Part shown: positions 4,206-27,361 of the stretch, one piece after another
Layout: every line of letters begins with the position of its first letter
Position numbering within the stretch: the first letter of the stretch is position 1
NCBI GenBank assembly: GCA_902384455.1
Contig: CABMCB010000038.1
Span: 1-36,660 of the forward strand
DNA from: an uncultured archaeon
GTDB lineage: Archaea > Altiarchaeota > Altiarchaeia > IMC4 > SCGC-AAA252-I15
Direction: 5' to 3'
DNA: 36,660 bases
Position numbers and translations under genes: made by a program
Notes under the pieces: generated by a model
What the model saw: only the letters and a program-made list of their open reading frames with translations
Told to the model about the DNA's origin: nothing
The model's database searches: none

Positions 4206-4301
4206 CTTCTCTCCATGAAAGAGGGAGTAGAGGGTGTGTTCATGGCACACCCTCTCACTCTAAATCTTAACACGGGTTGCAACCCGTATCAAGAGATTTG
4301 T

Positions 4302-7273
4302 TTATTGAATTGCGGGAACTGAGTCGATATAGCGAATACGCTGAGTGTTCGTTCCGGTTGCAGGCGGAAGAGTTACCGTCTGGTGGAACTTGTAAGAACA
4401 CCAGCCGCCGATGGTCGAAACTGGGTCAAACGATGAAGCAGGCGCGTCTGTTACAACGCGGCAATCGCACTTTTGTTACTAGGGTAGGTCATTTCTGCCT
4501 ACCTCTTACGGTTTATTTCCCGTAAGGTCGGACTATCGCACGCCCCACAGGGGCTCGTTTCATTTAGTCTCTCACGGTCTCGTTATCGAGTTCCGCCTTG
4601 TTCCCGTCTCAGGGTTCAAGCCAATTAGAAACGATTTTCTAGCAAAATCTTTCGATTAAGCCGCCACCTTATTGATGGTCTTCCAGTCGCCCTCGTCGAG
4701 GTCGGTGTCTCCCGGCACTTGCAGCCACACACCAATCATGGCATAGTTGCCGAATACGTAGGTGCGGTATCCGATTTTGCCGGTCGATGCGTAGTTTGCC
4801 GTCGTGGTTACGAACGGGGTCTGCATGAAGCCGATGTTCGTGCCCGGTAGCATGATGACCTTGTTCTGGTCAGAGCCTGCCATCGCGTCGAACTTCTCCA
4901 TGTTCTCGTTCTTCCACAAGTCAACGATGCTGTTGTTCACAGTCGTGGCGTTGTAGAGGTCGCCCAACACGTTCGGGCTGATTGCGCCCAAGAACATCCC
5001 GCGCTTACACGGCAACACGTTCTTTGAAACAAGCTGCTGCTTCAATTCACGGATGGTGCCGAGGTCAAGCGTGTACGGAGATGCCAGCAAGCTGCTCTGG
5101 TTAACCTGACCGTCAACGGTTGACGCGCTGTCGGCTACGGCACTGTACAGTTCTGAAATCGACTGGCCAGCCTGATAGCCTAGCTCAACTGCGCTGTTTC
5201 CCACCAATTCGTCAATAGCCGAAGCGATTGCGAAAGATGAGAAGTTCGCGTAATTGCTGTGTGTTTATGGATTTCTACGTCTTCGTAGAATCGCTCTTAC
5301 TGTCACCAGTAAGTTCAGACTGTGTCTTTACTCCGGGAGGAGTACTCAACATGTCAGTCGTTGCGGAACCTTTTTCGATGCTATTTAAAAGATTTTTTGC
5401 TTGCTCTTTTTTAAGAAGCAAGTGCGGTACCAAGTCGAGAAGAAATTCTTTCTTATTTTTCTTTCCTGATAGTCGCCATCTAAAGTATGTTTTTCCTCCG
5501 TTCATAGAACGTTGGTCGAACCGACCGCCAAAGCACATCAGAAACCAACGCATAAGAATAAGTCTCTTTTGCGTCAGTTCTACGCTTTGTCCGATTGAGC
5601 CGTCTCCATCAAATACGCCTGCTGCAAAAGCAGACATTTCCGAGGGAGTTAACTTTACTAGATTTTCTTTTCTATCTTTTTCTAAATCCCCAACTTTAGC
5701 GGCTTTCATTTCTTCCGCTATTTGAAGTTTTCTATCTTTGTTCCAGCCAGTCATCCTAACGAACTCAAGAGCCAAGACGGCCTCTTGTTTTTTCGCTACA
5801 ATGTGAGGCAGAACCCCAAGAAGAAAGGCTTCTTGATTCTGTTTACCGAACATGAACCAAAAGTAGATGTCTGGCGAGTCTTTGGTTGAAAAACCCCGCT
5901 GATTTTTTCTTCGGTAGAACTTCCCGCCGAAGTTAGACGACAGCCACTTCATTAGCCTGATGTCGGTATTGGAGATTGTGATTTGAAGGCTCATTCCGGT
6001 GATGCCGTTTGGGCGGCGGTCAACCGCTATTTGGAACGTACCTTCTGCATCGAGCATTCCGGCCACATACGGCCACGCTTTCTTTTCCATTAAGGTTTCC
6101 TCAAACTCGTCTTTAATGCTAGCACATCACGTGCCAGAAGTCAAGAGGTAATTTGATATAGTTGAGTTTTAAGTGGAACAATTAATTTTTCCACTCACCA
6201 ATCTGGGCCGGAGCCGAGATTTGGCTGATTGCTTCCGGGTTGCCCACGGTGCCGTCAGCGTTCTGTACAACGTCGCCCGAAAGCGTGTTGTACTGGAAGA
6301 ACGTGCGATTCACGCCCATGTGAAGGCCTTGAACGCGACGCTCTGCCGCACCAACGAATGCGTTGGTGTTGCCTTTAAGGTTCGTCTTGTTACCCTGACG
6401 CACTCAGGGGATTGCTCATTTCTGGCAATCTCTAACAGTTTAGTCTTTCTGTTAGACCGGACTATTACATCGCCTTTCGGCGTCCTCTCGGTTAGTCTCT
6501 CACGGCGCTTTTCGCTTCCGCCTCGTTGCCCCCGAATTGACTGGGTTTCGAGTCCATTAGAGAAGATTTTTCACTTATTTCAGTGCCCCTCATCATGTAT
6601 CCGATTATTTTTTGAAACTCCTCTGCTGTGCCGTTCATTTTCAAACGATTGGCTCGCCATGATATGAAACACAAATTCCCTTTGTACTTTCTTAGATAGG
6701 GGAGGTTTGGGTTCATTCTATCGATGGACGGGGCGTGGTCGTGTTTCCACAAACTGCCTTTTTGAAGTTTTTCAAATCTAGTTCCAAACACCGGACAAAA
6801 ATCTCCCACTGCTGGGAGGTCCGATAGTTCGAGGTCTGATTCATATCCTCGTTCTCGGCATCGATTTTGTATCGATTTCCATGCGCGGTATTTTACTAGA
6901 TGCTCGGTATCAGAACCTCTGGAATATCCTCCGTGAGTTCTGTTTGCTAAGCCTTTTTGTTTTGTGGTCTCTTTAAACAGGCATCCGCATGACTGCGTCT
7001 TACCTGCTTTAAGGTCTATGCCCAGAACTGATTTCTCATTTCCACACACACACCGACACAACCACTTTGAAAACACTGCGCCGCTAGGCATAACAGCATT
7101 TTCTAAACGCTTAACAACAAATAATCTTCCGAATATTTGACCCTCAAACTTATGGGCTTTCTTTTGCATGATGTTTTCCTTGGAAATTAAGGGATTAGTT
7201 CTTTGTCGAAGATAATCGCCTGTGCTGTAAGGACGTTTGATACGTTATTTCCTGATGGATTTGGTCCGCTCAT
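4302..7273 (-). CDS. Major capsid protein, spliced from exons 7273-7190, 6382-6189, 5256-4675, 4467-4302 (341 aa)
   Basis: Exon lengths 84+194+582+166=1026 nt keep one frame (junctions ELIP|NLKG, EW-N-NYANF, KT-I-DCRV). Lies after portal and scaffold; sequence pattern resembles N4-gp56-like HK97-fold capsids (inference). Confidence 0.85.
4468..4674 (-). ncRNA. Group I intron 3 of the capsid gene (207 nt, no ORF)
   Basis: 5' exon ends CCAU pairing with IGS GUGG (U.G at the splice site); P7 strands GAGACUA and UAGUCC; terminal G; removal restores the frame. Confidence 0.88.
5275..6090 (-). CDS. Double-motif LAGLIDADG homing endonuclease (intron-encoded)
   Basis: YVAGMLDAEGTF and FAAGVFDGDGSI motifs; C-terminus runs into the intron core. 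Confidence 0.92.
   Translation of the reverse strand: MEKKAWPYVAGMLDAEGTFQIAVDRRPNGITGMSLQITISNTDIRLMKWLSSNFGGKFYRRKNQRGFSTKDSPDIYFWFMFGKQNQEAFLLGVLPHIVAKKQEAVLALEFVRMTGWNKDRKLQIAEEMKAAKVGDLEKDRKENLVKLTPSEMSAFAAGVFDGDGSIGQSVELTQKRLILMRWFLMCFGGRFDQRSMNGGKTYFRWRLSGKKNKKEFLLDLVPHLLLKKEQAKNLLNSIEKGSATTDMLSTPPGVKTQSELTGDSKSDSTKT
6116..6144 (-). promoter_or_regulatory. Intron-internal sigma70-type promoter for the LAGLIDADG gene
   Basis: TTGACT-17 bp-TAGCAT about 26 nt upstream of ATG 6090. Confidence 0.6.
6383..7189 (-). mobile_element. Group I intron 1 of the capsid gene, carrying an HNH-type endonuclease
   Basis: CCCU|UAA 5' site, candidate IGS AGGGG near 6590, GAGACUA/UAGUCC P7, terminal G; core is clearly similar to intron 3 (CCGTGAGAGACTAA, ATAGTCCG, AGAAATGA, GTAACAA). 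Confidence 0.88.
6492..7169 (-). CDS. Intron-encoded HNH-type homing endonuclease
   Basis: GQIFGRLFV...WLCRCVCG...SCGC; CPVFG...PSIDRMNP...GNLCFISWRANRLK. Confidence 0.88.
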   Translation of the reverse strand: MQKKAHKFEGQIFGRLFVVKRLENAVMPSGAVFSKWLCRCVCGNEKSVLGIDLKAGKTQSCGCLFKETTKQKGLANRTHGGYSRGSDTEHLVKYRAWKSIQNRCRERGYESDLELSDLPAVGDFCPVFGTRFEKLQKGSLWKHDHAPSIDRMNPNLPYLRKYKGNLCFISWRANRLKMNGTAEEFQKIIGYMMRGTEISEKSSLMDSKPSQFGGNEAEAKSAVRD

Positions 7274-7326
7274 TGCGGTTACTCAAAAGTCGTAAACTCC
7301 CGCCGGAGGCGGGGTGCATAAAACTG

Positions 7327-9095: not shown

Positions 9096-11213
9096 TTATA
9101 GTGCCGTTGTTGCGGCAAAGCCCTGCGTTTGCTCCGGGCCGCCGCTTAACAGCGGACTCATAGATTTTTCGATAGAAGCACGGACAGCCTCGTTTCCGGC
9201 CTTGCCTAGCTGCTTCTGGTTTTCCAGTGTCTGCTCTTGGGCAAACTTCGCGGCTTGCGCCTTCTCCGCGCTCGCTGCTTGCGCTTGTTGAAGTGCCGCT
9301 GGGCTGTTTGCCTGATGACGCTGTCTCTCTTCGTCTGACATTGGGCGGAGAAATTTCTGACTGAACTTCCAGCCAGCCGCGTCCGTAAATGCTTGGAAGA
9401 TGGCAACTGCGTCGAATTGATAGCCCGCGTCATTAGCGTTTGTCACGAACGTCGGATTATTCAAAAGCTGAATCATGATTGGTAGCGCTTGGGCCATTTC
9501 CTTCTTTGCGCCCAAATTAGCACCGGCTAGGACCTCATACTCGAATTTTGCGTTGCGGTAGTCGATGTGGTCTAACTTGTACTCCGCCCCAATCTTCTCG
9601 CCCAGAATTTCTCTAAGCACCGTGGTCGGTAGCAGGTCGTTGTTCAATTCGTCCATGATAAGCAACCAAGGCTCGAAACACTGACGAACGAAACGACCCG
9701 TTGGGCCGTCAAGTCGGGATGCGTTGGCTTGAATAACAGCCGCTGCGCCGGTGCCCGACCTCATACCGGTGGTTGACACACCTGCGTGTCCAGCGCCCTG
9801 AATAACTTGCTCGTTCGCGCCAGACGTGGCCGCGCCCGCTGCTTGGGACTGCTGAATGAATTGAAATGCCTCGCTCGGGGGAGCGGGCATTTGTAAGAAC
9901 TTGAATGCTTTTTCAACGTCTTCTTCTACGTCGATAATGCCGCCCTGCTCCCAGCGCGTATTCTGAGTCGGCGCATTAAAGCCTTTCTTACGAAGCGCGA
10001 CCGGCTGTAAACAATAGGCTAAAAGGTCGAGTGCAAGGTTGGTTACCCCTTGCTCAACGATTTGTTCGCTTCCGATAAGTAGGCCGAGGCCCTGCCCATA
10101 AAAGCTGTCCGGGATATTACGCCAGTTAGCCGACAAGAACGGGATGCGCCCGTATGGGTTCGCTTCGTTGCGAATAAGGATGTTATGGCCGTTAAAACAC
10201 AGAACCACAATTACCTTCTCGTTGTCCCAACGCTCTAGAATTTCAATTGGTGCGCGGTTCGGGTCAGCCGTGGTCTTGTAGTTCCTCGGCTTACTGTGCT
10301 GCAAATAACCCATCATCCCTTCCGGGATGGTCATCGAAATGTTGTCGGGCCCAGAAGACGGCTTATCTGCACGCGCAAAAATAGCGCGAAGAACTTCTTC
10401 GTCTGGGATTTCATAGCCTTCGACACCGCGCAGGCGGTCTAGGTCTTGGTACGTCGCATAATCACGATAAACAACCCACGCCGCTCGGCGAATATCGCCG
10501 ACACGGCATCCGGGGTCAACCAACACAGTACGAATATCGCACCAGCGAAGCCACGGATGAGAGATTGTCTTATCGTAAAAAATTACTTCAAAGTCGTCTG
10601 ACTCAGGCGTATCAATGTGAACTACACCTTCGCCGTCCGGCACCTGTGTCTTCTCTGCGTAGCGCTTGTACTTCTTAATCTTTTTCTTGTACTCTGTGTA
10701 GCCCCACTTCCAAATTCCGGTGCCGAGAAGGGCCATCTGGTCTAAGCCGCGCTCGATTTCTTCCTCGAAGTGCATAGCTTTAAGTTCGAATGTGAAGACC
10801 GCAGTCTTCGCGTCCAAAAGCCCTTGGTCTGTCCCCGGGCTCGGGCGAAGCAGGAAGCACGGGTCTTCGTAGAAAATACCGCCCATCACTTTCGGGACGA
10901 TTGAGCTGATGTGGTTAGACACCATGAACTTCGGAACAGACGAAGACGCCACGCCCGCCGAGCCCCCACCGTCCATGTTATTCCCGGACATCGGCGACTG
11001 GTAAAGTAAGTCTGCCATTGTCCAGCCGGAGGCCCACTGGTTAATGTTGATGAAATTGTCCGCAGTCTCGGTGTCTGTTAGAACAAGCTTAATCGCAGCC
11101 GTGTCATTGAACTGAATGGTTCCTGTCTCAGCATCAATGTAAGTATTCTCGGTTGTAATCTCAGCGGCTGGCTCTTGGTACAACGCCTCGACCTTCTGGT
11201 CAATCTCGCTCAT
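9096..11213 (-). CDS. Portal protein
   Basis: ~705 aa after terminase; ALLGTGIWKWGY, VLVDP, NPYGRIPF...PDSFYGQG motifs typical of podovirus-like portals. Confidence 0.85.
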   Translation of the reverse strand: MSEIDQKVEALYQEPAAEITTENTYIDAETGTIQFNDTAAIKLVLTDTETADNFININQWASGWTMADLLYQSPMSGNNMDGGGSAGVASSSVPKFMVSNHISSIVPKVMGGIFYEDPCFLLRPSPGTDQGLLDAKTAVFTFELKAMHFEEEIERGLDQMALLGTGIWKWGYTEYKKKIKKYKRYAEKTQVPDGEGVVHIDTPESDDFEVIFYDKTISHPWLRWCDIRTVLVDPGCRVGDIRRAAWVVYRDYATYQDLDRLRGVEGYEIPDEEVLRAIFARADKPSSGPDNISMTIPEGMMGYLQHSKPRNYKTTADPNRAPIEILERWDNEKVIVVLCFNGHNILIRNEANPYGRIPFLSANWRNIPDSFYGQGLGLLIGSEQIVEQGVTNLALDLLAYCLQPVALRKKGFNAPTQNTRWEQGGIIDVEEDVEKAFKFLQMPAPPSEAFQFIQQSQAAGAATSGANEQVIQGAGHAGVSTTGMRSGTGAAAVIQANASRLDGPTGRFVRQCFEPWLLIMDELNNDLLPTTVLREILGEKIGAEYKLDHIDYRNAKFEYEVLAGANLGAKKEMAQALPIMIQLLNNPTFVTNANDAGYQFDAVAIFQAFTDAAGWKFSQKFLRPMSDEERQRHQANSPAALQQAQAASAEKAQAAKFAQEQTLENQKQLGKAGNEAVRASIEKSMSPLLSGGPEQTQGFAATTAL

Positions 11214-18855: not shown

Positions 18856-18929
18856 TGGTTCCGGCGGCTCGACTCGAACGAACATGACGGGTTTCAGAGA
18901 CCCGCATCCTACCATTGGATGACATCGGA
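18856..18929 (-). tRNA. tRNA-Gln(CTG)
   Basis: CGGGT-CTCTGAA-ACCCG, TTCGAGT loop, CCA. Confidence 0.88.
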
Positions 18930-19047
18930 ACAGAAATGTTGGAAACGGTCATTCGACGAGGAGCGCGTCCGTGCTCCACTTTAGTGCTGGGCCGAACACC
19001 ATCGCCGTTTCCTGTCATGGTGTATGTACGGCATCGAATATGAAAAT

Positions 19048-19082
19048 TGGTTGGGGCGCGTGGACTCGAACCACGATTATCC
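19048..19082 (-). pseudogene. Orphan tRNA 3' half
   Basis: CGTGG-TTCGAGT-CCACG-CGCCCCA-ACCA directly after the HNH stop, with no 5' half. Confidence 0.7.
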
Positions 19083-19448
19083 CCTGCGACTGAATGTTCT
19101 CTCGCGATGACAGTTAGCGCAAACAACGTCGCACTTTTCTGATTCTTCTTTAATCGACTCAAAACTTCTCAGATGACAAGTCGAACAAGACAACTCAAAC
19201 TTTTTCTTTCCTCGGACATGGTCAAAGTCCATAACATACCAAGGATACTCCGCACCGCAATCAGCGCACGGTTTTGATTTCAAACTTTTAACAAAGTCTC
19301 TTATACCTTTTCTTCGGCGGTCTCTAGACTCGTTGGTGCTACTCGGGTGTGTCTTGTAATAACTTTTCTGATACTCGTTATGACACGACGCGCATTTACT
19401 GCTGTATGGAAGGCGCTCAGTCTCTTGACACGTGCTGCATGGTTTCAT
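19077..19448 (-). CDS. HNH endonuclease (family B)
   Basis: CADCG...MDFDHVRG...CDVVCANCH. Confidence 0.85.
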   Translation of the reverse strand: MKPCSTCQETERLPYSSKCASCHNEYQKSYYKTHPSSTNESRDRRRKGIRDFVKSLKSKPCADCGAEYPWYVMDFDHVRGKKKFELSCSTCHLRSFESIKEESEKCDVVCANCHRERTFSRRG

Positions 19449-19524
19449 TTTACTCTCCTATAAGGGCGGCAGGGAGAGTATAGGCTCTCCCCGCCTAGTT
19501 CGGGTTATAAAGCCGAACTTAAAC

Positions 19525-19599
19525 TGGTTGGGCAAGAACGATTCGAACGTTCATCGAGCGGATTCAAAGTCCGACGTGTTACCGTTACACTATCGCCCA
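19525..19599 (-). tRNA. tRNA-Gln(TTG)
   Basis: CGGA-CTTTGAA-TCCG, CCA. Confidence 0.88.
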
Positions 19600-19608
19600 A
19601 CAGAAAAT

Positions 19609-19721
19609 TGGTCCCCGCCGTCGAATCGAGTAATGTACGCCTGTCGTTTCAAGACAGCGCTCTACCGGCGAACTAGCGATGGATGGAGGAACGCCGCATC
19701 CTACCATTGGACGACATCCCA
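19609..19721 (-). pseudogene. Composite degenerate tRNA fragments (Gln-like 5' half, CCTCCA end, decayed GAA tRNA)
   Basis: TGGGATGTCGTCCAATGGTAGGATG, then CTGTC-TTGAAAC-GACAG and a terminal ACCA; T arm disrupted. Confidence 0.55.
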
Positions 19722-19730
19722 ACAGAAATT

Positions 19731-19949
19731 TTACTGCGGCAGAGGAGACTTTTGGAGATACCCGGCCACGAAAATTACGCCGGATGCCGCCGCCCCAACC
19801 GCCGTGATATATAATACGTGATGAAAACCCAATCCCGGCTTTAAGTTAAACGACTCAGGAGAAATTCCAATAGCCGCGAAAGCGTTTATCACACCACCGG
19901 CCATTCCTGAAATCGCGGAGGCTAGCAATCCCTTTGTCCACTTATTCAT
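19731..19949 (-). CDS. Small membrane protein, holin-like
   Basis: Two TM-like segments, C-terminal YLQKSPLP. Confidence 0.6.
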   Translation of the reverse strand: MNKWTKGLLASAISGMAGGVINAFAAIGISPESFNLKPGLGFHHVLYITAVGAAASGVIFVAGYLQKSPLPQ

Positions 19950-20302
19950 GATAGCAGATTCACCGGTGGCAAGCCTAAATCGGCTCGCTCTAAATTTACA
20001 ATCTTCATCGCCCGGGCTAGGTCACCTGCTTCCGCTTTCAGTCCGTGAAGAGACTGAACAGCGTCGAGCCACCAGCACATGAATTGAGCGAATTTACGCC
20101 ACGCAAACCACTCATATCCCTTGGAACGAAACCAGCGACTACTTCTCGCGGACATTGTCTCGTCGAGGTTGCCGTAAGTCAAGACGTTCAGAAACTGGTC
20201 AAGACCGCACAACACGCGCTGCACATAGTTATGTGTTAACGCCTTTTGTCCCCACGCAATCACTTGAGGTTGGTCAGGATTCGAGAGCGGTGTTAAGCCC
20301 AT
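19946..20302 (-). CDS. Hypothetical phage protein (DQxxN...DETxSAR motif)
   Basis: 118-aa ORF coupled to the downstream membrane protein. Confidence 0.65.
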   Translation of the reverse strand: MGLTPLSNPDQPQVIAWGQKALTHNYVQRVLCGLDQFLNVLTYGNLDETMSARSSRWFRSKGYEWFAWRKFAQFMCWWLDAVQSLHGLKAEAGDLARAMKIVNLERADLGLPPVNLLS

Positions 20303-20307
20303 AAAAT

Positions 20308-20381
20308 TGGTCCTTCCCCACCGAGTCGAGCGGTGACGGCCTGTGTTTCAAACAGGAATGCAACCCCTACATCAAAGAAGG
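20308..20381 (-). tRNA. tRNA-Phe(GAA), atypical
   Basis: CCTGT-TTGAAAC-ACAGG; T loop CTCGACT; CCA. Confidence 0.7.
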
Positions 20382-20382
20382 A

Positions 20383-20469
20383 TGGAGGAAGAGAACTGAG
20401 TTGAACAGTCACCCCTTTCAGGATGGCACGGTGTTCGAAACCGTTTGCAGACCGTCTGCGCTGTCTTCC
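20383..20469 (-). tRNA. tRNA-Ser(CGA), atypical (Sec/allo-tRNA-like fold)
   Basis: ACGGT-TTCGAAC-ACCGT, long variable arm, compact D arm GCAG-ACGGT-CTGC, CCA. Confidence 0.7.
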
Positions 20470-20933
20470 GAAACTTTACCTCTGATACGGTCTTTATATT
20501 CTTTCTCGTGTTCTTTACAATCGCGACGAAGACCGTTCCAGTTACTTGCGTTTTTAGAAAATTTCTCAGCGGGGAGAAACTTCTTATGCGAACGACACCG
20601 TGCCGCTCCTTGCGGCGGTGTGATGCGCTTAATATCAGGCTTGCCCGTTTGTGGGCGTCTGGCCGCCGCACAGTTACATGAAAGGTGCGAAAAAGCGACG
20701 TTGCTTAAATCCCAGAATAACGAAACATCCACATTTTCCCACGGCTCTTTGTGCTCGATGCTTAATTTGTCTGCTGATTCAATCTCTAACTCACAACGAT
20801 AGCAAACATTTTCATCGTGACGTTTAAGCACATCAAATAGAACCAGTTTTCTGAGTCTGTTTGCGGCGGTGCCTCTCGGCATACCGAGCTGGACGGACAT
20901 ATTTCTGTGTCTGTCTATTTCGTGTTTCTTCAT
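20418..20933 (-). CDS. HNH endonuclease (family A)
   Basis: LGMPRGTAANRLRK...CYRC...LSIEHKEPW...NVAFSHLSCN. Confidence 0.82.
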   Translation of the reverse strand: MKKHEIDRHRNMSVQLGMPRGTAANRLRKLVLFDVLKRHDENVCYRCELEIESADKLSIEHKEPWENVDVSLFWDLSNVAFSHLSCNCAAARRPQTGKPDIKRITPPQGAARCRSHKKFLPAEKFSKNASNWNGLRRDCKEHEKEYKDRIRGKVSEDSADGLQTVSNTVPS

Positions 20934-20975
20934 GAGCCGTCCTTTGGGCCTACAGCCTCTGACGCGCCTTAAAAT

Positions 20976-21063
20976 TGGAGGATAAAGTAGGATTCGAACC
21001 CACGAAACCTTTCGGTTTACTCGTTTTCAAGACGAGGGCAATAATCCGCTCTGCCATTTATCC
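20976..21063 (-). tRNA. tRNA-Ser(TGA)
   Basis: CTCGT-CTTGAAA-ACGAG, long variable arm, CCA. Confidence 0.92.
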
Positions 21064-21107
21064 TTTGAAGATTGGCGGAAGCTGCTGGGTGCCGCTGCCT
21101 TCCGTAA

Positions 21108-22007
21108 TTATATAACCGTTAAAGCGTACGTGACGCTGTATGTCGGCGAATTAGCAGTAGCAATCGTTATCGTTATCGCCGAGCTAGCGACCACGTTCAA
21201 AAGAAAATCAAAAGTCGATGCGGTTGCTGTCGTAGCTACTGAGAACGTAGCCGATGTCTGGGTCGTGGCTCCAACAGGGCTCGTATAACCAGCCGTCACC
21301 GTTACTGTTCCGCCAGCGTTCGCTTGCGTCGCTTTCACAGAACCTTCGAAGCGATAACGTCCCGCTCCCGCATAACCGGACGCATTGGTATTCAAAATTG
21401 TGATAGGACCCACATTACCGGTTATGGTGCTGCCACCGGCTACTATCGTCCCTTGAAGACCACCGACTGCGAACGTTTGCCCGCCGTATCTAGTTACTAG
21501 TCCGGTGTTGGGAGAAAATCTCGTGGAGATGGCCAGCGGGCGTCCGTTGACCGTACTCGGAGGAATGCAGGTTTCCCCTGTGGTGTAGTCTGTCGTGATG
21601 CCGCCACCCGCCGAGCCGTATATCGAAACATGACCGTCAACATCTAATGTCAAGCTAGACGACAAAACGCCGAGTGAGTATGTGTCCCAGTGAAACTCTC
21701 CGTCGGTATTTTCATAGCCCACGGTGTATGTGTTCGATGGAGCAGAAGCGTTTTGAAAATACAAACATCCGGCTGCTGTTCCGTCCGCACGAACGAATTT
21801 ATAAACGCCGTTCTGTGTGCCGGGTAAAAAATTAAACGTTGTGCCGGGACCGCCGGTTGGAATAATGCCTGCCGCAAGACCACCTTGTAGTTGGGCATTA
21901 GCGTCAATCCAACCTACTACTGCGCCGCCCTCGGCCTGAATTTGTAACACGTCTTGGCCTGTTGTTTGCCACACCGATGCCGGGTTCTTTGATGGCGCTG
22001 TAGTCAT
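21108..22007 (-). CDS. Putative fibre/virion surface protein inside the tRNA array
   Basis: Thr/Gly-rich; N-terminus similar to that of the 2137 ORF. Confidence 0.65.
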   Translation of the reverse strand: MTTAPSKNPASVWQTTGQDVLQIQAEGGAVVGWIDANAQLQGGLAAGIIPTGGPGTTFNFLPGTQNGVYKFVRADGTAAGCLYFQNASAPSNTYTVGYENTDGEFHWDTYSLGVLSSSLTLDVDGHVSIYGSAGGGITTDYTTGETCIPPSTVNGRPLAISTRFSPNTGLVTRYGGQTFAVGGLQGTIVAGGSTITGNVGPITILNTNASGYAGAGRYRFEGSVKATQANAGGTVTVTAGYTSPVGATTQTSATFSVATTATASTFDFLLNVVASSAITITIATANSPTYSVTYALTVI

Positions 22008-22094
22008 AAACCACACCTAATCTGTTCTTAACCGCTACTTAAGTCCGGCGGCTCGGACACTCTGTGTTACCTCTCAGGGCATTTGTATTAAACT

Positions 22095-22184
22095 TGGCGG
22101 AGGATGCAGGATTTGAACCTGCACAACCTTTCGGTTGGCTGCCGCTTAGCAAGCGGACACAATGCCGGGTTCTGTCAACCCTCC
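22095..22184 (-). tRNA. tRNA-Ser(GCT)
   Basis: CCGC-TTGCTAA-GCGG, long variable arm, GCCA. Confidence 0.9.
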
Positions 22185-22192
22185 GCATAAAT

Positions 22193-22266
22193 TGGCAGGA
22201 CGCGGAGGAATCGAACCCCCACCACTCGATTTGGAGGCGAGCAGACTACCACTATCCTAGCGACCT
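22193..22266 (-). tRNA. tRNA-Trp(CCA)
   Basis: Loop CTCCAAA, GCCA end. Confidence 0.88.
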
Positions 22267-22276
22267 GTAGAAACTT

Positions 22277-22408
22277 ATCGACCGCATTCACCGTGATGAC
22301 GCCCCCGAGTTTTCGAGACTCGGTGCGGGAGTCGAACCCGCTGTTGTCGATTTCGTCGGACGCGTGGCTAGCCGTGTCATAGCCCTTTGGACTCGCGTTG
22401 ACCGATGA
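22277..22408 (-). ncRNA. Circularly permuted tRNA-like RNA (YrlA-like topology)
   Basis: Order is T arm GCGGG-TTCGACT-CCCGC, loop-closed acceptor-like stem CCGAGT/ACTCGG, D-like arm; closed by ATCGAC/GTCGAT. Confidence 0.65.
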
Positions 22409-22412
22409 AGAT

Positions 22413-22500
22413 TGGTGCGTTGACAAGGACTCGAACCTTGGAAGTCCACAAGGGACAGTTGGTTTACAGCCAACGGCAATTGCCGCTATGCGACCAACGC
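22413..22500 (-). tRNA. tRNA-Tyr(GTA)
   Basis: GTTGG-CTGTAAA-CCAAC, long variable arm, CCA. Confidence 0.92.
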
Positions 22501-22509
22501 ACTGAAACT

Positions 22510-22583
22510 TGGAGCGGTGTGCGATAATCGAAATCGCGCCCGTGCCTTGGCAAGGCACCGTTCTACCACTAAACTAACGCCGC
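22510..22583 (-). tRNA. tRNA-Gly(GCC)
   Basis: GTGCC-TTGCCAA-GGCAC, TCCA. Confidence 0.9.
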
Positions 22584-22591
22584 TCAGAACT

Positions 22592-22665
22592 TGGAGCCAA
22601 ACGTGTAAATTGAACACGCCCTTGCGGTTTACGAAACCGCTGTCATACCACTAGACCATCAGGGC
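22592..22665 (-). tRNA. tRNA-Thr(CGT), mispaired acceptor and T stems (possible pseudogene)
   Basis: GCGGT-TTCGTAA-ACCGC; 3' part nearly identical to the 22887 copy. Confidence 0.6.
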
Positions 22666-22874
22666 TTATTAACGCCCGCCGGATTGACCGTGTGCTGCAA
22701 TCTTCCGATAACCTTGTTGAACATGGAGTCGCGCCTATCCTCGACGTCCGGGCTCGTATATCCTTCCGGCACCCGGCTGCCAAAACTTTTTGGCTCGTCG
22801 ATGCCCTCAATGACAATACGACTTTTATTCCTAGCATCGTATGCCTGTTTGTATGACGGCTTTTCGTTTGGCAT
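22659..22874 (-). CDS. Small hypothetical protein
   Basis: GAGG RBS; lies between the two Thr(CGT) copies. Confidence 0.55.
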   Translation of the reverse strand: MPNEKPSYKQAYDARNKSRIVIEGIDEPKSFGSRVPEGYTSPDVEDRRDSMFNKVIGRLQHTVNPAGVNKP

Positions 22875-22886
22875 ATAACCTCAAAA

Positions 22887-22960
22887 TGGAGCCAAACGCG
22901 TGAATTGAACACGCCCTTGCGGTTTACGAAACCGCCGTCCTACCGCTAGACGAGTAAGGC
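22887..22960 (-). tRNA. tRNA-Thr(CGT)
   Basis: Same anticodon arm; two U.U mismatches in the acceptor stem. Confidence 0.7.
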
Positions 22961-23394
22961 TTAGACTCAAAATATCTTTCTTTATAGAGTTTCATCTGTT
23001 GACGGCAAGACTTTCTTAGCCCATTCCATCTGGCTGCGTCTTTGCTAAAATCGCTTTCAGGATGAAACCTCTTACAAGAAGTACACCAAGACAGCCCCTG
23101 CTCTCCGATAATACGCTTGGGTTCGCCACCGCGTCTTATGTGGGGCACATTACACTTCGTGTGGGAAAATGCGATGTTCTCCAAATCCCAGAATAGTGAC
23201 GTCTCTCGATTCTCCCACGGCTGTTTATGCTCGATGCTCAAATCGTCGTCTGTTTCGACCGCGCTTCCACACTTAAAACAAACGTTTTCTTTTAATCGAA
23301 CAAGCAGACTAAACAGAATCTTCTTGCGAAGTTTTCCTGCTGCTGCTCCGTGGGACATACCTAGTTGTTGCGCGATTCGTTCACTTCTACTCAT
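22924..23394 (-). CDS. HNH endonuclease (family A)
   Basis: LGMSHGAAAGKLRK...CFKC...LSIEHKQPW...NIAFSHTKCN. Confidence 0.82.
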   Translation of the reverse strand: MSRSERIAQQLGMSHGAAAGKLRKKILFSLLVRLKENVCFKCGSAVETDDDLSIEHKQPWENRETSLFWDLENIAFSHTKCNVPHIRRGGEPKRIIGEQGLSWCTSCKRFHPESDFSKDAARWNGLRKSCRQQMKLYKERYFESKPYSSSGRTAVS

Positions 23395-23437
23395 AGCCGT
23401 TGTCTTCCTTGGACGTTAGCACATGAATTTGAAAAAT

Positions 23438-23511
23438 TGGAGCCGCGTGTCCGAATCGAGCGGACGCCCGAGAGGTACAAGCTCTCTGTTCTACCATTAA
23501 ACTAACCCGGC
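23438..23511 (-). tRNA. tRNA-Thr(TGT)
   Basis: GAGAG-CTTGTAC-CTCTC; T loop CTCGATT. Confidence 0.85.
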
Positions 23512-23520
23512 TAAAAGTAT

Positions 23521-23612
23521 TAGGCTCACTCACCCGCCGTTGCTAGCCGGGCGGGGCTTCGGTGAACATGCGCCCCAGCCTAGCCGCTGAGATGTTCTCT
23601 CCGTAGAGCCTA
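23521..23612 (-). ncRNA. Unassigned structured RNA
   Basis: Closing stem TAGGCTC/GAGCCTA, three internal hairpins, loop complementarity GAACAT/ATGTTC. Confidence 0.5.
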
Positions 23613-23616
23613 AAAT

Positions 23617-23691
23617 TGGTGGACAAGGGCGGTTATGCTCCGCCGACCTTCGGGTGCAGGCCGAAAATTTTCCTAATTAAACTACTCGCCC
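23617..23691 (-). tRNA. tRNA-Ala(TGC), atypical
   Basis: G3.U70 pair; TTCGG-CCTGCAC-CCGAA; T loop AGCATAA. Confidence 0.75.
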
Positions 23692-23988
23692 AAAATGAAA
23701 TTTACGATGACAGTTAGCACAAAGGATTTCGCACTTTGCTATTTCCTCTTTGATGCGCTCCAATCCAAAACCTCTGGCTGCCATTATACCCAACACTTCA
23801 AACTTCTGTGAAGGGTCTTTATGGTGAAAATCCAAACAGCAGGGTGTTGACTCTCCGCACTTACACGGGTGAGTAGCCTTGTATTCTTGCACAAATACTC
23901 GGTTCCTCAACTTACGGGATTTCTTATCTGCTATTCTTGCTACTCTATTCTTTATATAATGCTTTCTGCTGTTTTCCGATTGACTCAT
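23677..23988 (-). CDS. HNH endonuclease (family B)
   Basis: CKCGE...LDFHHKDP...CEILCANCH. Confidence 0.85.
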   Translation of the reverse strand: MSQSENSRKHYIKNRVARIADKKSRKLRNRVFVQEYKATHPCKCGESTPCCLDFHHKDPSQKFEVLGIMAARGFGLERIKEEIAKCEILCANCHRKFHFGRVV

Positions 23989-24064
23989 ATTCCCTCCAAG
24001 GAGGGCTATTAAGTAAAACGGGAGTGTGGTCCACCACTCGGTTTATGTCCGAGAACTCAAAATC

Positions 24065-24164
24065 TTTGAAGTCATTCACACGTTACCTTTCACGCTACGT
24101 GTGCTTGCCAGATGTCGGATGCGAAGGTGAAAGTGTTCGCGCTTCCGTGAATGGTGACTTCAAA
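24065..24164 (-). ncRNA. Unassigned rod-shaped RNA
   Basis: TTTGAAGT/ACTTCAAA, CATTCAC/GTGAATG, CTTTCAC/GTGAAAG nested helices. Confidence 0.5.
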
Positions 24165-24166
24165 CT

Positions 24167-24241
24167 TGGTAGCCAATCAGGGACTCGAACCCGTGATTTC
24201 ACGTTAATCAGACGTGCGTCCTGCCATTGGACGAATCGGCT
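24167..24241 (-). tRNA. tRNA-Ile(GAT)
   Basis: CACGT-CTGATTA-ACGTG (T37), CCA. Confidence 0.85.
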
Positions 24242-24308
24242 CTTGATAACACCGGAGTCCGCTTTACGAAAGCGGCATCATAACCACTAATTCAACAAGG
24301 CTTAAAAC

Positions 24309-24382
24309 TGGAGCGGCGTCACGGACTCGAACCGAGACGAAGAGTTTGGAAAACTCCAATGCTACCATTACATCAACACCGC
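24309..24382 (-). tRNA. tRNA-Gly(TCC)
   Basis: GGAGT-TTTCCAA-ACTCT, TCCA. Confidence 0.9.
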
Positions 24383-24389
24383 TCAAAAT

Positions 24390-24462
24390 TGGTTCAGGAG
24401 GTGCGAGTTGAGCGCACGGAGGTCGGCTTATGAGACCGACTTGAATACCCATTCTCCCCTGA
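24390..24462 (-). tRNA. tRNA with CAT anticodon (Met/fMet/Ile2 unresolved), atypical
   Basis: GTCGGT-CTCATAA-GCCGAC, very short D arm, T loop CTCAACT, CCA. Confidence 0.7.
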
Positions 24463-24934
24463 ATTGAAACTCAATAATTCGATGACAGTTCGAACAAAGC
24501 AAATCACACTTCGCTATCTCCTCCAAGAGACGCTCCCTTCCGAATCGAAAAGAGCCTTGTCCGATGTTGAATGTTTTCTCTTTTCTATCTCGATGATGCC
24601 AATCAAGAGCGAACGGCGGATAAACAATTCCACATCTCTTGCACGGCTTGCCCTCCTTAAAAGAGTTAAGCCACTGCCTGCGTCGTGCGACGCAAGCCTT
24701 CATGTGTGAAAATGCGATGTTATCCAAATCCCAAAACAGTTCAGCCGAGATACCTTCCCACGGCTTAATATGCTCAACACTGAGTTCTTCTACGGTTTCA
24801 ATTTCTAATCCGCATCGAACACAGATGTTTTCTTTATGTTTCTTTAATTGCTGAAACAACAATATCTTTCGTAATCTGTGTGACGCCGTGCCGATAGGCA
24901 TTCCTAACGTCTCTATGCCTTTTCTATTTGACAT
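24428..24934 (-). CDS. Chimeric double HNH endonuclease (family A N-half, family B C-half)
   Basis: LSVEHIKPW...NIAFSHMKAC followed by CKRCG...LDWHHRD...CSNCH. Confidence 0.8.
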   Translation of the reverse strand: MSNRKGIETLGMPIGTASHRLRKILLFQQLKKHKENICVRCGLEIETVEELSVEHIKPWEGISAELFWDLDNIAFSHMKACVARRRQWLNSFKEGKPCKRCGIVYPPFALDWHHRDRKEKTFNIGQGSFRFGRERLLEEIAKCDLLCSNCHRIIEFQFRGEWVFKSVS

Positions 24935-24971
24935 ACCCTTTGCTCCTTGAGCGTTGAGTAAGATTTAAACT

Positions 24972-25047
24972 TGGTACCCCGTAAGTGAATCGAACACTTC
25001 CTGTCTGGGTGTAGGCCAGATGCATACGACCAGTTTGCTAACAGGGT
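24972..25047 (-). tRNA. tRNA-Val(TAC)
   Basis: TCTGG-CCTACAC-CCAGA (C33), CCA. Confidence 0.82.
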
Positions 25048-25056
25048 ACAGAAAAT

Positions 25057-25131
25057 TGGTGGGCCGCCAGAGGCTCGAACTCTGACTAAAGGCTTAAAAG
25101 GCCCCGCTGCTGCCACTCGCATTCGCAGCCC
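25057..25131 (-). tRNA. tRNA-Lys(TTT)
   Basis: GGGGC-CTTTTAA-GCCTT, CCA. Confidence 0.85.
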
Positions 25132-25140
25132 ACATAAAAT

Positions 25141-25216
25141 TGGTCGTCCGCCTCGGGCTCGAACCGAGACCTTGTCCGTTAAGAGCGGAAAATTCTGCCT
25201 CTCGAAATCGCAGACG
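25141..25216 (-). tRNA. tRNA-Lys(CTT)
   Basis: TCCG-CTCTTAA-CGGA, CCA. Confidence 0.85.
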
Positions 25217-25224
25217 ACATAAAA

Positions 25225-25560
25225 TTTGCTTCGACTATAGCCCGGGTTTTGTCATACGCCTTGCGACGCGAGACAGTCATTCCTCTAAGCCCCCACCCGA
25301 CCTTCGACGTCTTCGACTTGACTCAGGTCCTACTTGGGGTTGCATCCATGTGGAGTTCGCTGACTCGAATGACGCAATCTACGTAAATGTTTACGCGAAT
25401 TGCGTATCAGCCCTTACCCGAACGGTTACCCGCCCCGCAACTTCCACGGCATGTTGTCGATGATGGCCGGAACTTCCTCCCTGCTCACGGCACAGGTTGA
25501 ACTCTTCCTCTCGGGGAGTCAACATACTCCGTGAACACAGCGACTGTCCGTCGAACCAAA
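25225..25560 (-). ncRNA. rnpB: RNase P RNA, divergent and reduced
   Basis: P1 TTTGGTTCGAC/GTCGAAGCAAA, P2 GACAGTC/GACTGTC, CR-I GAGGAAGTTCCGG (25479-25467), AACTCCAC...GCAA, CR-IV TAGAGGAATGACTGTC, CR-V ACAAAACCCGGGCTATA (25252-25236). Confidence 0.88.
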
Positions 25561-25649
25561 ATACGAAGAAGGCTTTCGTTGCCTTCATAAAACGCTAGGG
25601 ATTCTCGTTATGGCCTAGTCCGGTTCAGTTGGATGAACCGACAAGAACT

Positions 25650-25723
25650 TGGAGCACGCGGCTGGAATCGAACCAGCGATGACTGTTTTGCAGACAGTTA
25701 GCTTTCCACTTGCCTACACGCGC
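25650..25723 (-). tRNA. tRNA-Cys(GCA)
   Basis: ACTGT-CTGCAAA-ACAGT, U73, CCA. Confidence 0.92.
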
Positions 25724-25728
25724 AAACT

Positions 25729-25816
25729 TGGTGCGTCACCCCGGATTCGAACCGGGACGGGTTTTACCCCAGCCGGGTTTGAGCCGACCGCGTCTGCCAG
25801 TTCCAGCCAGCAACGC
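25729..25816 (-). tRNA. tRNA-Leu(CAA)
   Basis: GTCGG-CTCAAAC-CCGGC, long variable arm. Confidence 0.9.
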
Positions 25817-25824
25817 ACGAAACT

Positions 25825-25899
25825 TGGAACACCTCGTCGGACTCGAACCGACATGACGAGCTTAGGAAGCTCGCGTCCTCTCCATTGAACGAGAGGTGT
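25825..25899 (-). tRNA. tRNA-Arg(CCT)
   Basis: CGAGC-TTCCTAA-GCTCG. Confidence 0.92.
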
Positions 25900-25903
25900 A
25901 AAT

Positions 25904-25978
25904 TGGGGCACCCACTCGGACTCGAACCGAGATTGACGCGTTCGAAGCGCGTTGTCCTGTCCATTGAACGACAGGTGC
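25904..25978 (-). tRNA. tRNA-Arg(TCG)
   Basis: ACGCG-CTTCGAA-CGCGT. Confidence 0.92.
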
Positions 25979-25983
25979 AAAAC

Positions 25984-26058
25984 TGGTGTTCCATGTGGGA
26001 GTCGAACCCACATCCGAGGTTTCGTAGACCTCTATCCTATCCATTGAACGAACGGAAC
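25984..26058 (-). tRNA. tRNA-Arg(ACG)
   Basis: GAGGT-CTACGAA-ACCTC. Confidence 0.92.
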
Positions 26059-26143
26059 ACTAAAACCATCGACGCGCTCTTCGTGTTGCTGTTTCGCGCC
26101 GAACGACCCTCAAATGCAGCTCCAAAGAGGAGAGTCGTAAACT

Positions 26144-26234
26144 TGGATTCGTCTCAGGTTCGCTGGTTCAACGTGTTGGCCGCTAAGCCGAATACCCTGA
26201 TTCACGTTCCTACTTTCCAGCGGGAACGGACGAA
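26144..26234 (-). ncRNA. Unassigned pseudoknotted RNA ending in TCCA
   Basis: TTCGTC/GACGAA closing stem plus TCCA; CGTTCC/GGAACG; TCAGG/CCTGA; pseudoknot CGCTGG/CCAGCG. Confidence 0.55.
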
Positions 26235-26237
26235 GAT

Positions 26238-26312
26238 TGGAGGCCCCAGAGGGAATCGAACCCTCATTCTGCGCTTAGAAGGCGCGTGTCCTGTCCATTG
26301 AACGACAGAGCC
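26238..26312 (-). tRNA. tRNA-Arg(TCT)
   Basis: GCGC-CTTCTAA-GCGC. Confidence 0.92.
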
Positions 26313-26317
26313 AAGCT

Positions 26318-26404
26318 TGGTGCCCCGCGAGAGACTCGAACTCCCACGACCTTCCGGCCACCTGTTTCTAAGACAGGCATGTCTGCCAATTCCATCAGCA
26401 GGGC
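26318..26404 (-). tRNA. tRNA-Leu(TAG)
   Basis: CCTGT-CTTAGAA-ACAGG, long variable arm. Confidence 0.92.
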
Positions 26405-26412
26405 AAATAAAA

Positions 26413-26652
26413 TTATCTAATCGCGTGCCAAGCACGCTTAATATTTTTCACGGTCAATTCGAGTTTATAGTTTTCAAGATATTCCCGAACCCGCCGCCCA
26501 TTTGCTGTACTCGGGCGGTAGCATGGATTCAAAGCCATAAACTCTTCCGCTATTTTTATTCCTTCTCTAAACTCGGTGCCCTGTAAAAGACTCGAACTCC
26601 CCGCGTCTTCCGGCAATCTATTTCTAGAACTGGCGTTTGAGTTCAAAGTCAT
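26413..26652 (-). CDS. Small ORF or gene fragment similar to an internal segment of the scaffold protein
   Basis: EFREGIKIAEEF...YRPSTANGRRVREYLENYKLELTVKNIKRAW versus scaffold EYAEGQVITAKF...YNPCQANYEALVEYLTTNQMDFTLDNLEAAF; start uncertain. Confidence 0.5.
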   Translation of the reverse strand: MTLNSNASSRNRLPEDAGSSSLLQGTEFREGIKIAEEFMALNPCYRPSTANGRRVREYLENYKLELTVKNIKRAWHAIR

Positions 26653-26708
26653 AACCTCTTTCGGACGACGATTCTAAGGCAGTAGCGTATGCATTCTGCC
26701 GCTCGGGA
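26574..26708 (-). pseudogene. Degenerate tRNA-Leu(TAG) remnants
   Basis: GCCGGAAG...GGGAGTTCGAGTCT...GGGCACC resembles the 3' half of 26318-26404; a second decayed CTTAGAA arm lies upstream. Confidence 0.6.
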
Positions 26709-26717
26709 ATTTAAACT

Positions 26718-26803
26718 TGGTGCGCTAGGTCGGAGTCGAACCGACAATCACTTCCGGGCCGGGGGTTTTAAGTCCCCTGCGTATGCCATTCCGCCACACG
26801 CGC
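26718..26803 (-). tRNA. tRNA-Leu(TAA)
   Basis: GGGG-A-CTTAAAA-C-CCCC, long variable arm, CCA. Confidence 0.9.
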
Positions 26804-26815
26804 ACTGAATAACTT

Positions 26816-26923
26816 GACCGCCGTGCTACCGCTACACCACCGCTCGTCGCATCCTTGCCGTATACACGGCTGACTCAAGAATGCACTATAGAGCAACTGG
26901 GATTCGAACCCAGACTTGCAGTC
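26816..26923 (-). ncRNA. Circularly permuted tRNA-like RNA (YrlA-like topology)
   Basis: GACTGC, T arm CTGGG-TTCGAAT-CCCAG, TTGCTC-[hairpin insert]-GAGCGG, D arm TGGTGTAGCGGTAGCAC, GCGGTC. Confidence 0.72.
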
Positions 26924-26942
26924 CTACCTGCCCGCCGATGTT

Positions 26943-27299
26943 TCATGCGGGACTTAATCTTTCTTCTTCCTCTCTGTGGCAATTAGCACACAAGAGAATG
27001 CACTTCTTAGCTTCAAACCAAAAGGCTTCCCAGTTATAAAATCTAAAGTCGTGGACATCTCGAATTTTATTTTCTGGCTCTGTGTGATGAAATTCCAGAG
27101 CACCTAAACATCTCGAATATCCACATCGGGAGCATTTCCCGCCCAACAACTTCACTGCCTTTTTCTTCTGTTCTCTGGCTCTGTTTTTAACGTAAAGTTT
27201 CAAACAGCCCTTACACAGAGTCATCAGTTTAGAGCCGCGAGACGACTTATAAAAATCTTCTTCCAGCTTCTCTAAATCACATTTAATACACTTTCTCAT
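26943..27299 (-). CDS. HNH endonuclease (family B)
   Basis: GGKCSRCGY...LEFHHTEP...CILLCANCH. Confidence 0.87.
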   Translation of the reverse strand: MRKCIKCDLEKLEEDFYKSSRGSKLMTLCKGCLKLYVKNRAREQKKKAVKLLGGKCSRCGYSRCLGALEFHHTEPENKIRDVHDFRFYNWEAFWFEAKKCILLCANCHREEEERLSPA

Positions 27300-27361
27300 T
27301 TCACTCTCCCTAAAGAGTGGGAAGGGGTGTTAGGGCACCCCTTTCCTTGTAGCTACAATTT

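Follow-up and report, generated by a model that had tools for sequence, protein, structure and literature searches.

A two-hairpin leader with complementary, covarying loops in front of selfish nuclease genes of uncultured phages: a candidate RNA family and possible translational throttle

In T4-type phages, the I-TevI, I-TevII, I-TevIII, segB and mobE genes have their ribosome-binding site hidden by a hairpin (PMC2988022). Each such hairpin stands alone and encloses the entire site in its stem, and the masking is relieved by a late promoter inside the hairpin (PMC2988022); the masked genes lie in long polycistronic units, segB in a tRNA cluster (PMC2988022; PMC2330249). Here we describe a leader element that occurs three times on the minus strand of contig CABMCB010000038.1 (GenBank assembly GCA_902384455.1, assigned to an uncultured archaeon of the Altiarchaeota), the 36,660 nucleotides (nt) of which were analysed in full and are called the window below. 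As in the T4-type hairpins, a predicted leader RNA structure lies over the Shine–Dalgarno sequence of a selfish nuclease gene, and the window's three genes are of the HNH type. The design is different, however: no single stem holds the site, since only the AG of the Shine–Dalgarno GGAG lies in a weak stem (S2), whereas the GG lies in the loop of that stem (loop 2) and needs the loop (loop 1) of a stronger upstream hairpin (S1) as its partner. Moreover, two abutting hairpins with covarying complementary loops are used instead of one, and the same design precedes GIY-YIG, HNH and endonuclease VII genes.

Other described RNAs share parts of this design. The guanidine-II riboswitch (mini-ykkC) likewise consists of two adjacent hairpins with kissing loops that control translation start, but its fixed ACGR tetraloops bind the ligand and form 2 pairs, and its variable single-stranded linker must stretch (PMC10351892, PMC7357161). 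In the element described here, the loops are 6–7 nt long, free in sequence (44 words) and fully complementary, the linker is 0–1 nt, and neither a conserved pocket nor an Rfam match is present. Two complementary, non-palindromic loop words on the same RNA are also found in phi29 prohead RNA and in domain III of bicoid mRNA, where they pair between molecules head to tail to give dimers or rings (PMC7357161); such assembly is only a proposal in our case. The phi29 RNA is part of a packaging motor and uses 4 pairs, the bicoid domain is a eukaryotic localisation signal, and neither is a bacterial Shine–Dalgarno leader. In the repZ/repA leader of IncI-alpha and IncB plasmids, finally, an upstream hairpin pairs through its loop with bases next to the ribosome-binding site, as would be the case here (PMC8383071).

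The element is a real and widespread RNA motif and a well-supported candidate for a new RNA family, with covariation in three helices, namely S1, S2 and the helix between the loops. An earlier note, made from the letters of the window alone, had described three minus-strand leaders in which the loop of a strong hairpin is complementary to a word overlapping the ribosome-binding site, and the sequence bears this out with exact complementarity at all three sites. The 3–4 nt that it gave between AGAG and ATG read as 3, 4 and 4 nt at sites 1, 2 and 3, respectively. Its statement that the partner word is itself a hairpin loop in two copies also stands: S2 is well formed at sites 1 and 3, whereas one mismatch (CCCT/AGAG) makes it imperfect at site 2, where a relative, L004, has GCTCT/AGAGT. 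S1 was recovered by single-sequence folds in all three leaders (z = −6.09, −3.99 and −2.14), and at each site GGAG is split, with one half in loop 2 and the other in the 3' arm of S2. The sites are laid out as follows, with bit scores given for R1, a covariance model that we built from ten gap-free copies.

4206..4260, minus strand: leader element of site 1 (sequence, fold, top R1 match with 68.9 bits).
4260-4246 (5' arm) with 4238-4225 (3' arm), minus strand: S1 of site 1, with one bulged G at 4256 (sequence).
4239..4245, minus strand: loop 1 of site 1, CCATGAA, exact complement of 4213-4219.
4223-4220 with 4212-4209, minus strand: S2 of site 1, CTCT with AGAG, followed by a 3-nt spacer and ATG at 4205 (sequence).
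4219-4213, minus strand: loop 2 of site 1, TTCATGG; the Shine–Dalgarno GGAG, 4214-4211, straddles loop 2 and the S2 3' arm (sequence).
3618..4205, minus strand: nuclease gene of site 1, 195 residues (PHROGs phrog_374 HNH endonuclease, E = 3.1e-15; phrog_3322 endonuclease, 1.3e-12).
19449..19495, minus strand: leader element of site 2 (sequence, fold, R1 match with 17 bits, E = 0.0036).
19495-19485 with 19478-19468, minus strand: S1 of site 2, 11 base pairs including one G–U (sequence, fold).
19479..19484, minus strand: loop 1 of site 2, CCTATA, exact complement of 19457-19462.
19467-19463, minus strand: GCCCT of site 2, followed by the partner TATAGG at 19462-19457, AGAG at 19456-19453, the spacer TAAA and ATG at 19448 (sequence).
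19458-19455, minus strand: Shine–Dalgarno GGAG of site 2 (sequence).
19077..19448, minus strand: HNH gene of site 2, 123 residues (PHROGs phrog_2255, E = 3.3e-25).
27300..27346, minus strand: leader element of site 3 (sequence, fold, R1 match with 30.9 bits).
27346-27336 with 27329-27320, minus strand: S1 of site 3 (sequence, fold).
27330..27335, minus strand: loop 1 of site 3, CCCTAA, exact complement of 27308-27313.
27319-27314 with 27307-27302, minus strand: S2 of site 3, CACTCT with AGAGTG, with 0 nt between S1 and S2 and ATG at 27299 (sequence).
27313-27308, minus strand: loop 2 of site 3, TTAGGG; Shine–Dalgarno GGAG at 27309-27306 (sequence).
26943..27299, minus strand: HNH gene of site 3, 118 residues (PHROGs phrog_2255, E = 3.2e-30; Pfam HNH below cut-off).

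No Pfam match was obtained for the site 1 protein.

The anatomy was measured in 73 copies. S1 comprises 11–16 pairs in 57 of them, with a median stability of −20 kcal/mol, and is closed by a loop of 6–7 nt that consists of CC and 4–5 variable bases. S2 comprises 4–6 pairs in 60 of the 73 (median −2.5 kcal/mol), usually as (A)CUCU/AGAG(U), and its loop is the exact complement of loop 1; for the loop–loop duplex, the median is −7.4 kcal/mol. Loop 2 ends in the GG of GGAG, for which loop 1 invariably supplies CC as the partner, the AG is in the 3' arm of S2, and the start codon follows 7–8 nt past loop 2 in 48 copies. Between S1 and S2, 0 unpaired nt are found in 28 copies, 1 in 24, 2 in 9, 3 in 9, 4 in 1 and 9 in 1, with one copy unresolved.

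Three patterns, none of which required complementarity, were scanned over public viral contigs, and the counts given here are among the matches listed. Pattern 1, in which the top of S1, CTCT and GGAG are fixed and the loops have 7 nt, gave 121 matches, 61 of which are complementary at all five free loop bases, 3 at four and 57 at three or fewer, the chance of full complementarity being about 1 in 1024 per match. With the same pattern in one genome per prokaryote species, none of 120 matches was complementary at all five bases, and the spread over 0 to 5 complementary bases (24, 38, 37, 17, 4 and 0 matches) was roughly chance-like. Pattern 2, which is pattern 1 with 6-nt loops, had all four free bases complementary in 13 of 119 matches. 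In pattern 3 only ACTCT, GGAGAG and ATG were fixed; here an exact 7-nt complement occurred up to 55 nt upstream in 21 of 119 matches, and in each of these 21 it lies in a hairpin loop on a stem of at least 6 base pairs. When only the five free bases were searched for, CC began loop 1 in 21 of 21 stem-flanked cases, and the other 17 matches had no stem. Complementarity in pattern 1 also goes together with gene starts: ATG follows 3–9 nt past GGAG in 52 of the 61 complementary matches versus 14 of 60 non-complementary ones, and an open reading frame (ORF) follows in 50 of 61 versus 8 of 60.

A strict scan of the parent assembly, which has 2,411,449 bases (2.41 Mb) in 103 contigs, found 23 such arrangements, 3 of them within the 36.7-kb contig that makes up the window. 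A targeted descriptor matched 11 times in 246,335 bases from four related phage contigs, compared with a mean of 0.675 and a maximum of 3 in 40 dinucleotide shuffles; in the remaining 2,374,789 bases of the assembly, it gave 11 weak matches with stems of 6–8 base pairs and 1–2 mismatches, none of them element-like. A version tolerating one loop mismatch was dropped, as its 152 matches were mostly spurious. Through proteins like the two HNH enzymes of phrog_2255, four viral records and a metagenome contig that have the leader with different loop words were reached, and three viral records scanned whole held eight further copies. The collected set comprises at least 79 distinct copies with at least 44 different loop words.

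For the analysis of covariation, R1 was run on 100 of the 121 pattern-1 loci, giving 53 aligned rows, 46 of them distinct; two spurious rows, one antisense and one partial, enter the counts as gaps only. The loop pairing had been said to covary on the strength of three copies, and it does so throughout this alignment: the loop–loop helix is paired in 100% of cells in 46 distinct sequences, with zero unpaired cells and with changes on both sides at five of its seven pairs (24, 23, 25, 5 and 14 cells), the remaining two pairs being invariant since the search pattern fixed them. S1 is paired in 96.3% of cells, and 7 of its 10 pairs covary. For the whole structure, the covariation score is 0.478, versus 0.120 in shuffled alignments, none of 500 of which reached 0.478, and 0.028–0.078 with slid partners. 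The pattern also fixed S2 in this set; in copies found through proteins, S2 does covary, with ATCC/GGAT, GCCT/AGGC and TGCTT/AGGCA beside the usual CTCT/AGAG. The top of S1 varies in the same paired fashion, with GTG/CAC in 10 of 17 cases and GAG/CTC, GCG/CGC, TTG/CAA, CTG/CAG and AGG/CCT also present. RNAalifold run on alignment A5 returned S1 only; loop pairing and a hairpin as weak as S2 lie beyond its predictions. Among 438 pairs at S1 positions 6–11, which had no part in detection, G–U occurs 52 times versus 9 for A–C, and because of this imbalance the evidence favours an element that acts as RNA of the coding strand rather than as a DNA structure.

The earlier note could not assign the element, and a search of Rfam 15 agrees with it: at gathering score, all 26 matches in the window are tRNAs, and only tRNA matches were obtained in L171 and L174, two records that hold 6 copies. 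When E was raised to 10, the search returned nothing at the L171 copies and only unrelated families at site 1, with 8–15.5 bits versus cut-offs of 35.7–100 bits. The pistol ribozyme, which has a P3 stem between P2 and its pseudoknot strand, was considered and rejected: even at E up to 10, it gave no Rfam match, and loop 2 is flanked directly by the arms of S2 with no further stem.

Concerning the literature, Fremin et al. 2023 (PMC10690425) catalogued 10,006 candidate structures of viruses, among them DNAVirus_7989, a 51-nt structure that occurs 100 times in viral contigs from freshwater and has Endonuclease_7 genes no more than 25 base pairs downstream in 59 records; it has no name and is undiscussed in the main text of that paper. 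Compared by size and gene context alone, DNAVirus_7989 may be a nested part of the same motif, so that the element has perhaps already been catalogued without a name. A full-text literature search found no published description of the element, and the main text of a 224-motif paper (PMC5737381) makes no mention of endonuclease, homing or kissing. For the complementary loops, the association with three kinds of nuclease and the steric puzzle discussed below, we found no sign of an earlier description, the structure of DNAVirus_7989 not having been compared.

The genes served were surveyed in 44 distinct ORFs of at least 60 residues behind 51 distinct copies with 7-nt loops; 19 of these ORFs are truncated by the end of the locus. 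In agreement with the claim that the leader accompanies endonuclease genes of several families, PHROGs assigned 37 of the 44 downstream proteins to nucleases (16 GIY-YIG homing endonucleases, 10 endonuclease VII and 11 HNH), left 7 without a family and assigned none to another function. Of nine downstream proteins in three whole viral contigs, Pfam placed 4 in Endonuclease_7 and 1 in HNH above cut-off. The copies with 6-nt loops and a readable ORF (n = 8) precede endonuclease VII twice, HNH once, GIY-YIG once, replication-initiator O-like genes twice and unknown genes twice. The two initiator genes, in viral contigs L303 and L339, have TTG start codons, and their leaders differ by a compensated change (CCTACA/TGTAGG versus CCTGCA/TGCAGG); the module is therefore not strictly limited to nucleases. 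Nor is it a trait of one protein family, because among 160 loci of the HNH family (L009–L168) only L089 and L009 have the element, L009 being the same place as L001, where the stem has mismatches.

From these features, we favour, with modest confidence, the view that self-contained nuclease cassettes in a group of uncultured tailed phages carry the element as their 5' leader RNA and that it serves as a throttle on translation. The sequences themselves show the structure, its covariation, the strand and the tie to gene starts and nuclease genes, from which an effect on ribosome binding and a way for the loops to meet are inferred. Loop 1 would serve as an anti-Shine–Dalgarno that covers the GG, and S2 would cover the AG. 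With loop 2 paired to loop 1 and S2 closed, all four Shine–Dalgarno bases would be buried and the 30S subunit could not bind, and the potentially harmful nuclease would therefore stay low in any transcription unit, here a tRNA array. S1 would probably also shield the 5' end.

Several observations weigh against this view. With a linker of 0–1 nt in 52 of the 73 copies and an S1 of 11–16 pairs in 57, sterics disfavour its simplest form, and the intramolecular kissing complex does not survive in the wording of the earlier note: because S1 and S2 abut, the two loops cannot meet in one intact molecule. In a kiss between hairpins, the loop helix is stacked between the two stems, which places the stem bases at opposite ends of a rod. 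At about 2.8 Å per base pair, the kissed rod would here be some 60–70 Å long by our estimate, a distance that one nucleotide cannot span. A classical pseudoknot formed without S2 would leave 5–6 nt to cross the 11–16 pairs of S1, and about 8 nt are needed to cross 11 pairs. Without loop pairing, the Shine–Dalgarno sequence would be only lightly masked because S2 alone is weak. Furthermore, the two initiator genes among the eight copies with 6-nt loops are not nucleases, and the leader is present on 3 of the 10 nuclease genes of the window and absent from 7. Finally, the example of repZ shows that translation can also be switched on by pairing next to the ribosome-binding site (PMC8383071).

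S1, S2 and the loop pairing are all selected and yet cannot coexist in one molecule, which therefore leaves either a two-state switch or pairing between copies, and we hold the two to be about evenly probable. In the first, an intramolecular pseudoknot would form by giving up S2 and the lowest pairs of S1. In the second, loop 1 of one copy would pair with loop 2 of another, head to tail. Each protomer carries two non-palindromic loops that are complementary at all 6–7 positions in at least 79 distinct copies. A more specific form of the second option, in which the stacked S1 and S2 make a rigid dumbbell of 15–20 base pairs and the leaders form head-to-tail closed dimers or small rings above a threshold mRNA concentration, burying every Shine–Dalgarno site, is put forward tentatively, and we consider it possible rather than probable.

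As alternatives to the throttle, four further readings were weighed. Hairpins at the 5' end stabilise bacterial mRNAs, and the element could be an mRNA stabiliser or processing signal, in which the S1–S2 stack blocks 5'-end-dependent decay or is cleaved to free the mRNA from a tRNA precursor, with the loop pairing only compacting the structure and translation control being secondary. This would agree with the high stability of S1, with the promoter-like site at site 1 (see below), which would start the RNA near the beginning of S1, and with the position of elements directly past tRNA 3' ends in processed tRNA arrays. However, it leaves unexplained why CC matches the GG of the Shine–Dalgarno sequence in 21 of 21 unbiased cases and why covariation is perfect across all 6–7 loop positions, and we regard it as unlikely.

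We consider a translational activator very unlikely. The repZ pseudoknot activates translation; for the pairing to form, a leader peptide has to be translated, and an antisense RNA blocks it. By analogy, pairing of loop 2 with loop 1 at the expense of S2 would free AGAG and the start codon and so open or position the ribosome-binding site, and translation of repZ does need a pseudoknot upstream of that site (PMC8383071). The pairing covers both G of GGAG, however, the core of the Shine–Dalgarno sequence; at none of the three sites is a leader ORF seen in the stretch from the upstream tRNA or hairpin to S1, antisense RNA not having been searched for; and selfish nucleases are expected to be repressed rather than boosted (PMC2988022).

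Less likely still is a leaky terminator or attenuator that stops part of the transcripts before the gene at S1 followed by CUCUUU. Loop 2 opens mostly with U (of 44 words, 30 have U and 12 have A at the first base, and 39 have U at the second), and for this reason CUCU after the GC-rich hairpin usually runs into U-rich bases; nevertheless, the U run is short, a consensus scan finds no terminator on the coding strand at any of the three sites, and the loop complementarity and S2 would be left without a role. Least likely of all is an action at the DNA level (interleaved inverted repeats that a protein recognises or that take part in the mobility of the cassette, as in the structured DNA end suggested earlier) or RNA loops that guide the nuclease, a nuclease-bound RNA having been suggested earlier, for although the architecture is the same in the reverse complement and palindromes lie just upstream in 16 of the 73 copies, the G–U excess points to pairing of one RNA strand, a single shared binding protein is ruled out by the 44 loop words, the leader precedes nucleases of three unrelated folds, and flanks of 700 nt show no enrichment of the loop word (4 occurrences versus 5.5 ± 2.4 expected).

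A role in tRNA sensing was rejected as well. Loop 1 resembles an anticodon loop (CCNNNAA versus CUNNNAA), but in several copies, those with the loops CCTCAAA, CCCTAAA and CCTTAAT, the triplets at the centre of loop 2 include UGA, UAG and UAA.

The sequences upstream of S1 are varied. The earlier note had seen an additional hairpin just upstream of each copy; a hairpin or palindrome is indeed present at each of the three sites, but the three are of different kinds. At site 1, it forms part of a promoter-like feature:

4264..4292, minus strand: promoter-like site upstream of site 1, TTGATA, 17 nt, and TAAGAT preceded by TG (sigma-70-like consensus, 9 of 12 matches).

The consensus scan found one such site here, versus 0.5 in shuffles, and none at sites 2 and 3. 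The site ends 18 nt before loop 1, and its spacer is a palindrome around GGTTGCAACC, which is the upstream hairpin of the earlier note. A transcript from this start would lose the 5' arm of the lowest S1 pairs, so that two RNA forms would be expected from the sequence. Of the 73 copies, 14 have a related TGnTARGRY word, the end of which is 18 nt upstream of loop 1 in 8 of them; elsewhere, a module of TTGCAA and TGnTARGRY stands upstream of 10 of the 73. At site 3, the sequence just upstream of S1 (27347-27358, minus strand) is a conserved perfect palindrome, TGTA(GC or CG)TACA, often TTTGTAGCTACA, which is located 12–16 nt upstream of loop 1 in 16 of the 73 copies and may be a phage-specific promoter or be bound by a dimeric protein. 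At site 2, the upstream hairpin (19498-19518, minus strand) consists of GTTCGG, the loop CTTTATAAC and CCGAAC. It recurs in contig L268 with the same loop CTTTATAAC and a different paired stem, CCGTGG/CCACGG, and a similar CCGTGG/CCACGG hairpin with TATAAT in the loop is present in L754 and L758; a −10-like TATAA word is found in the loops of all these hairpins.

The window is phage DNA, with genes for a large terminase subunit (11210-13498, minus strand) and a portal protein (9096-11222, minus strand). A related viral record, G003, has 101,360 bases with direct terminal repeats, so the window probably represents part of a phage genome of about 100 kb. A megablast search against the GenBank phage collection found no close relative, only tRNA-like matches of 50 nt. 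The nearest terminase is that of Tunturiibacter phage Tunturi_3, with 26.6% identity, and the first 50 kb of this phage gave only an 11.3-bit R1 match. In cultured phages, blastn with two leaders gave no credible match, and tblastn with an HNH and a GIY-YIG protein found best relatives of at most 46% and 37% identity, respectively; the site 1 protein used as a query for related loci found no relative.

In the window there are 30 tRNA genes, which all lie on the minus strand at 18856-28629, and 10 small nuclease genes of the HNH or endonuclease VII type, 7 of which are interspersed in the tRNA array on one strand. The leaders of sites 2 and 3, like those in relatives, begin about 10–40 nt past a tRNA 3' end. 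The gene for tRNA-Val (anticodon TAC; 24972-25047, minus strand) has the anticodon loop CCTACAC, with C in place of the nearly universal U33; the other 29 tRNAs of the window have T at this position. Three R1 matches (L173:11470-11512, L170:18991-19033 and C59:56305-56347, the last in contig C59 of the parent assembly, G000) were rejected as the antisense of a tRNA gene, and the tRNA genes read from antisense model matches in G002, G003 and C59 have the loop CCTACAA. A further R1 match, at 24650-24695 of the window (E = 0.009), had been considered as a decayed leader inside the ORF at 24428-24934; BLASTP aligns this stretch to the middle of an HNH protein, and it is therefore coding sequence and a chance match. 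That ORF (minus strand, 168 residues) encodes a composite nuclease, the N-terminal part of which resembles phrog_23251 HNH enzymes, whereas its C-terminal part resembles phrog_2255 HNH enzymes in their second half. The HNH gene at 23677-23988 (minus strand) is without a two-hairpin leader; upstream of it, at 23989-24010 (minus strand), a simple hairpin, CCCTCC-TTG-GAGGG, pairs the GGAGGG ribosome-binding site directly, in the style of T4.

One small RNA design is thus common to three unrelated kinds of selfish nuclease, GIY-YIG, HNH and endonuclease VII, in many uncultured phages, which suggests a portable module by which homing endonuclease cassettes control their expression, a control layer so far known only from a few T4-type hairpins. 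Its geometry frames the question as one between a switch and mRNAs that pair with each other, and its freely reprogrammable loops, of which 44 natural variants are at hand, might be used as orthogonal parts for translational control. If the leaders do pair in trans, this would be a natural homo-oligomeric mRNA leader in bacteria and a self-titrating mRNA, the protein output of which would saturate whatever the transcription rate, as would befit selfish cassettes that land in unfamiliar and often strongly transcribed places.

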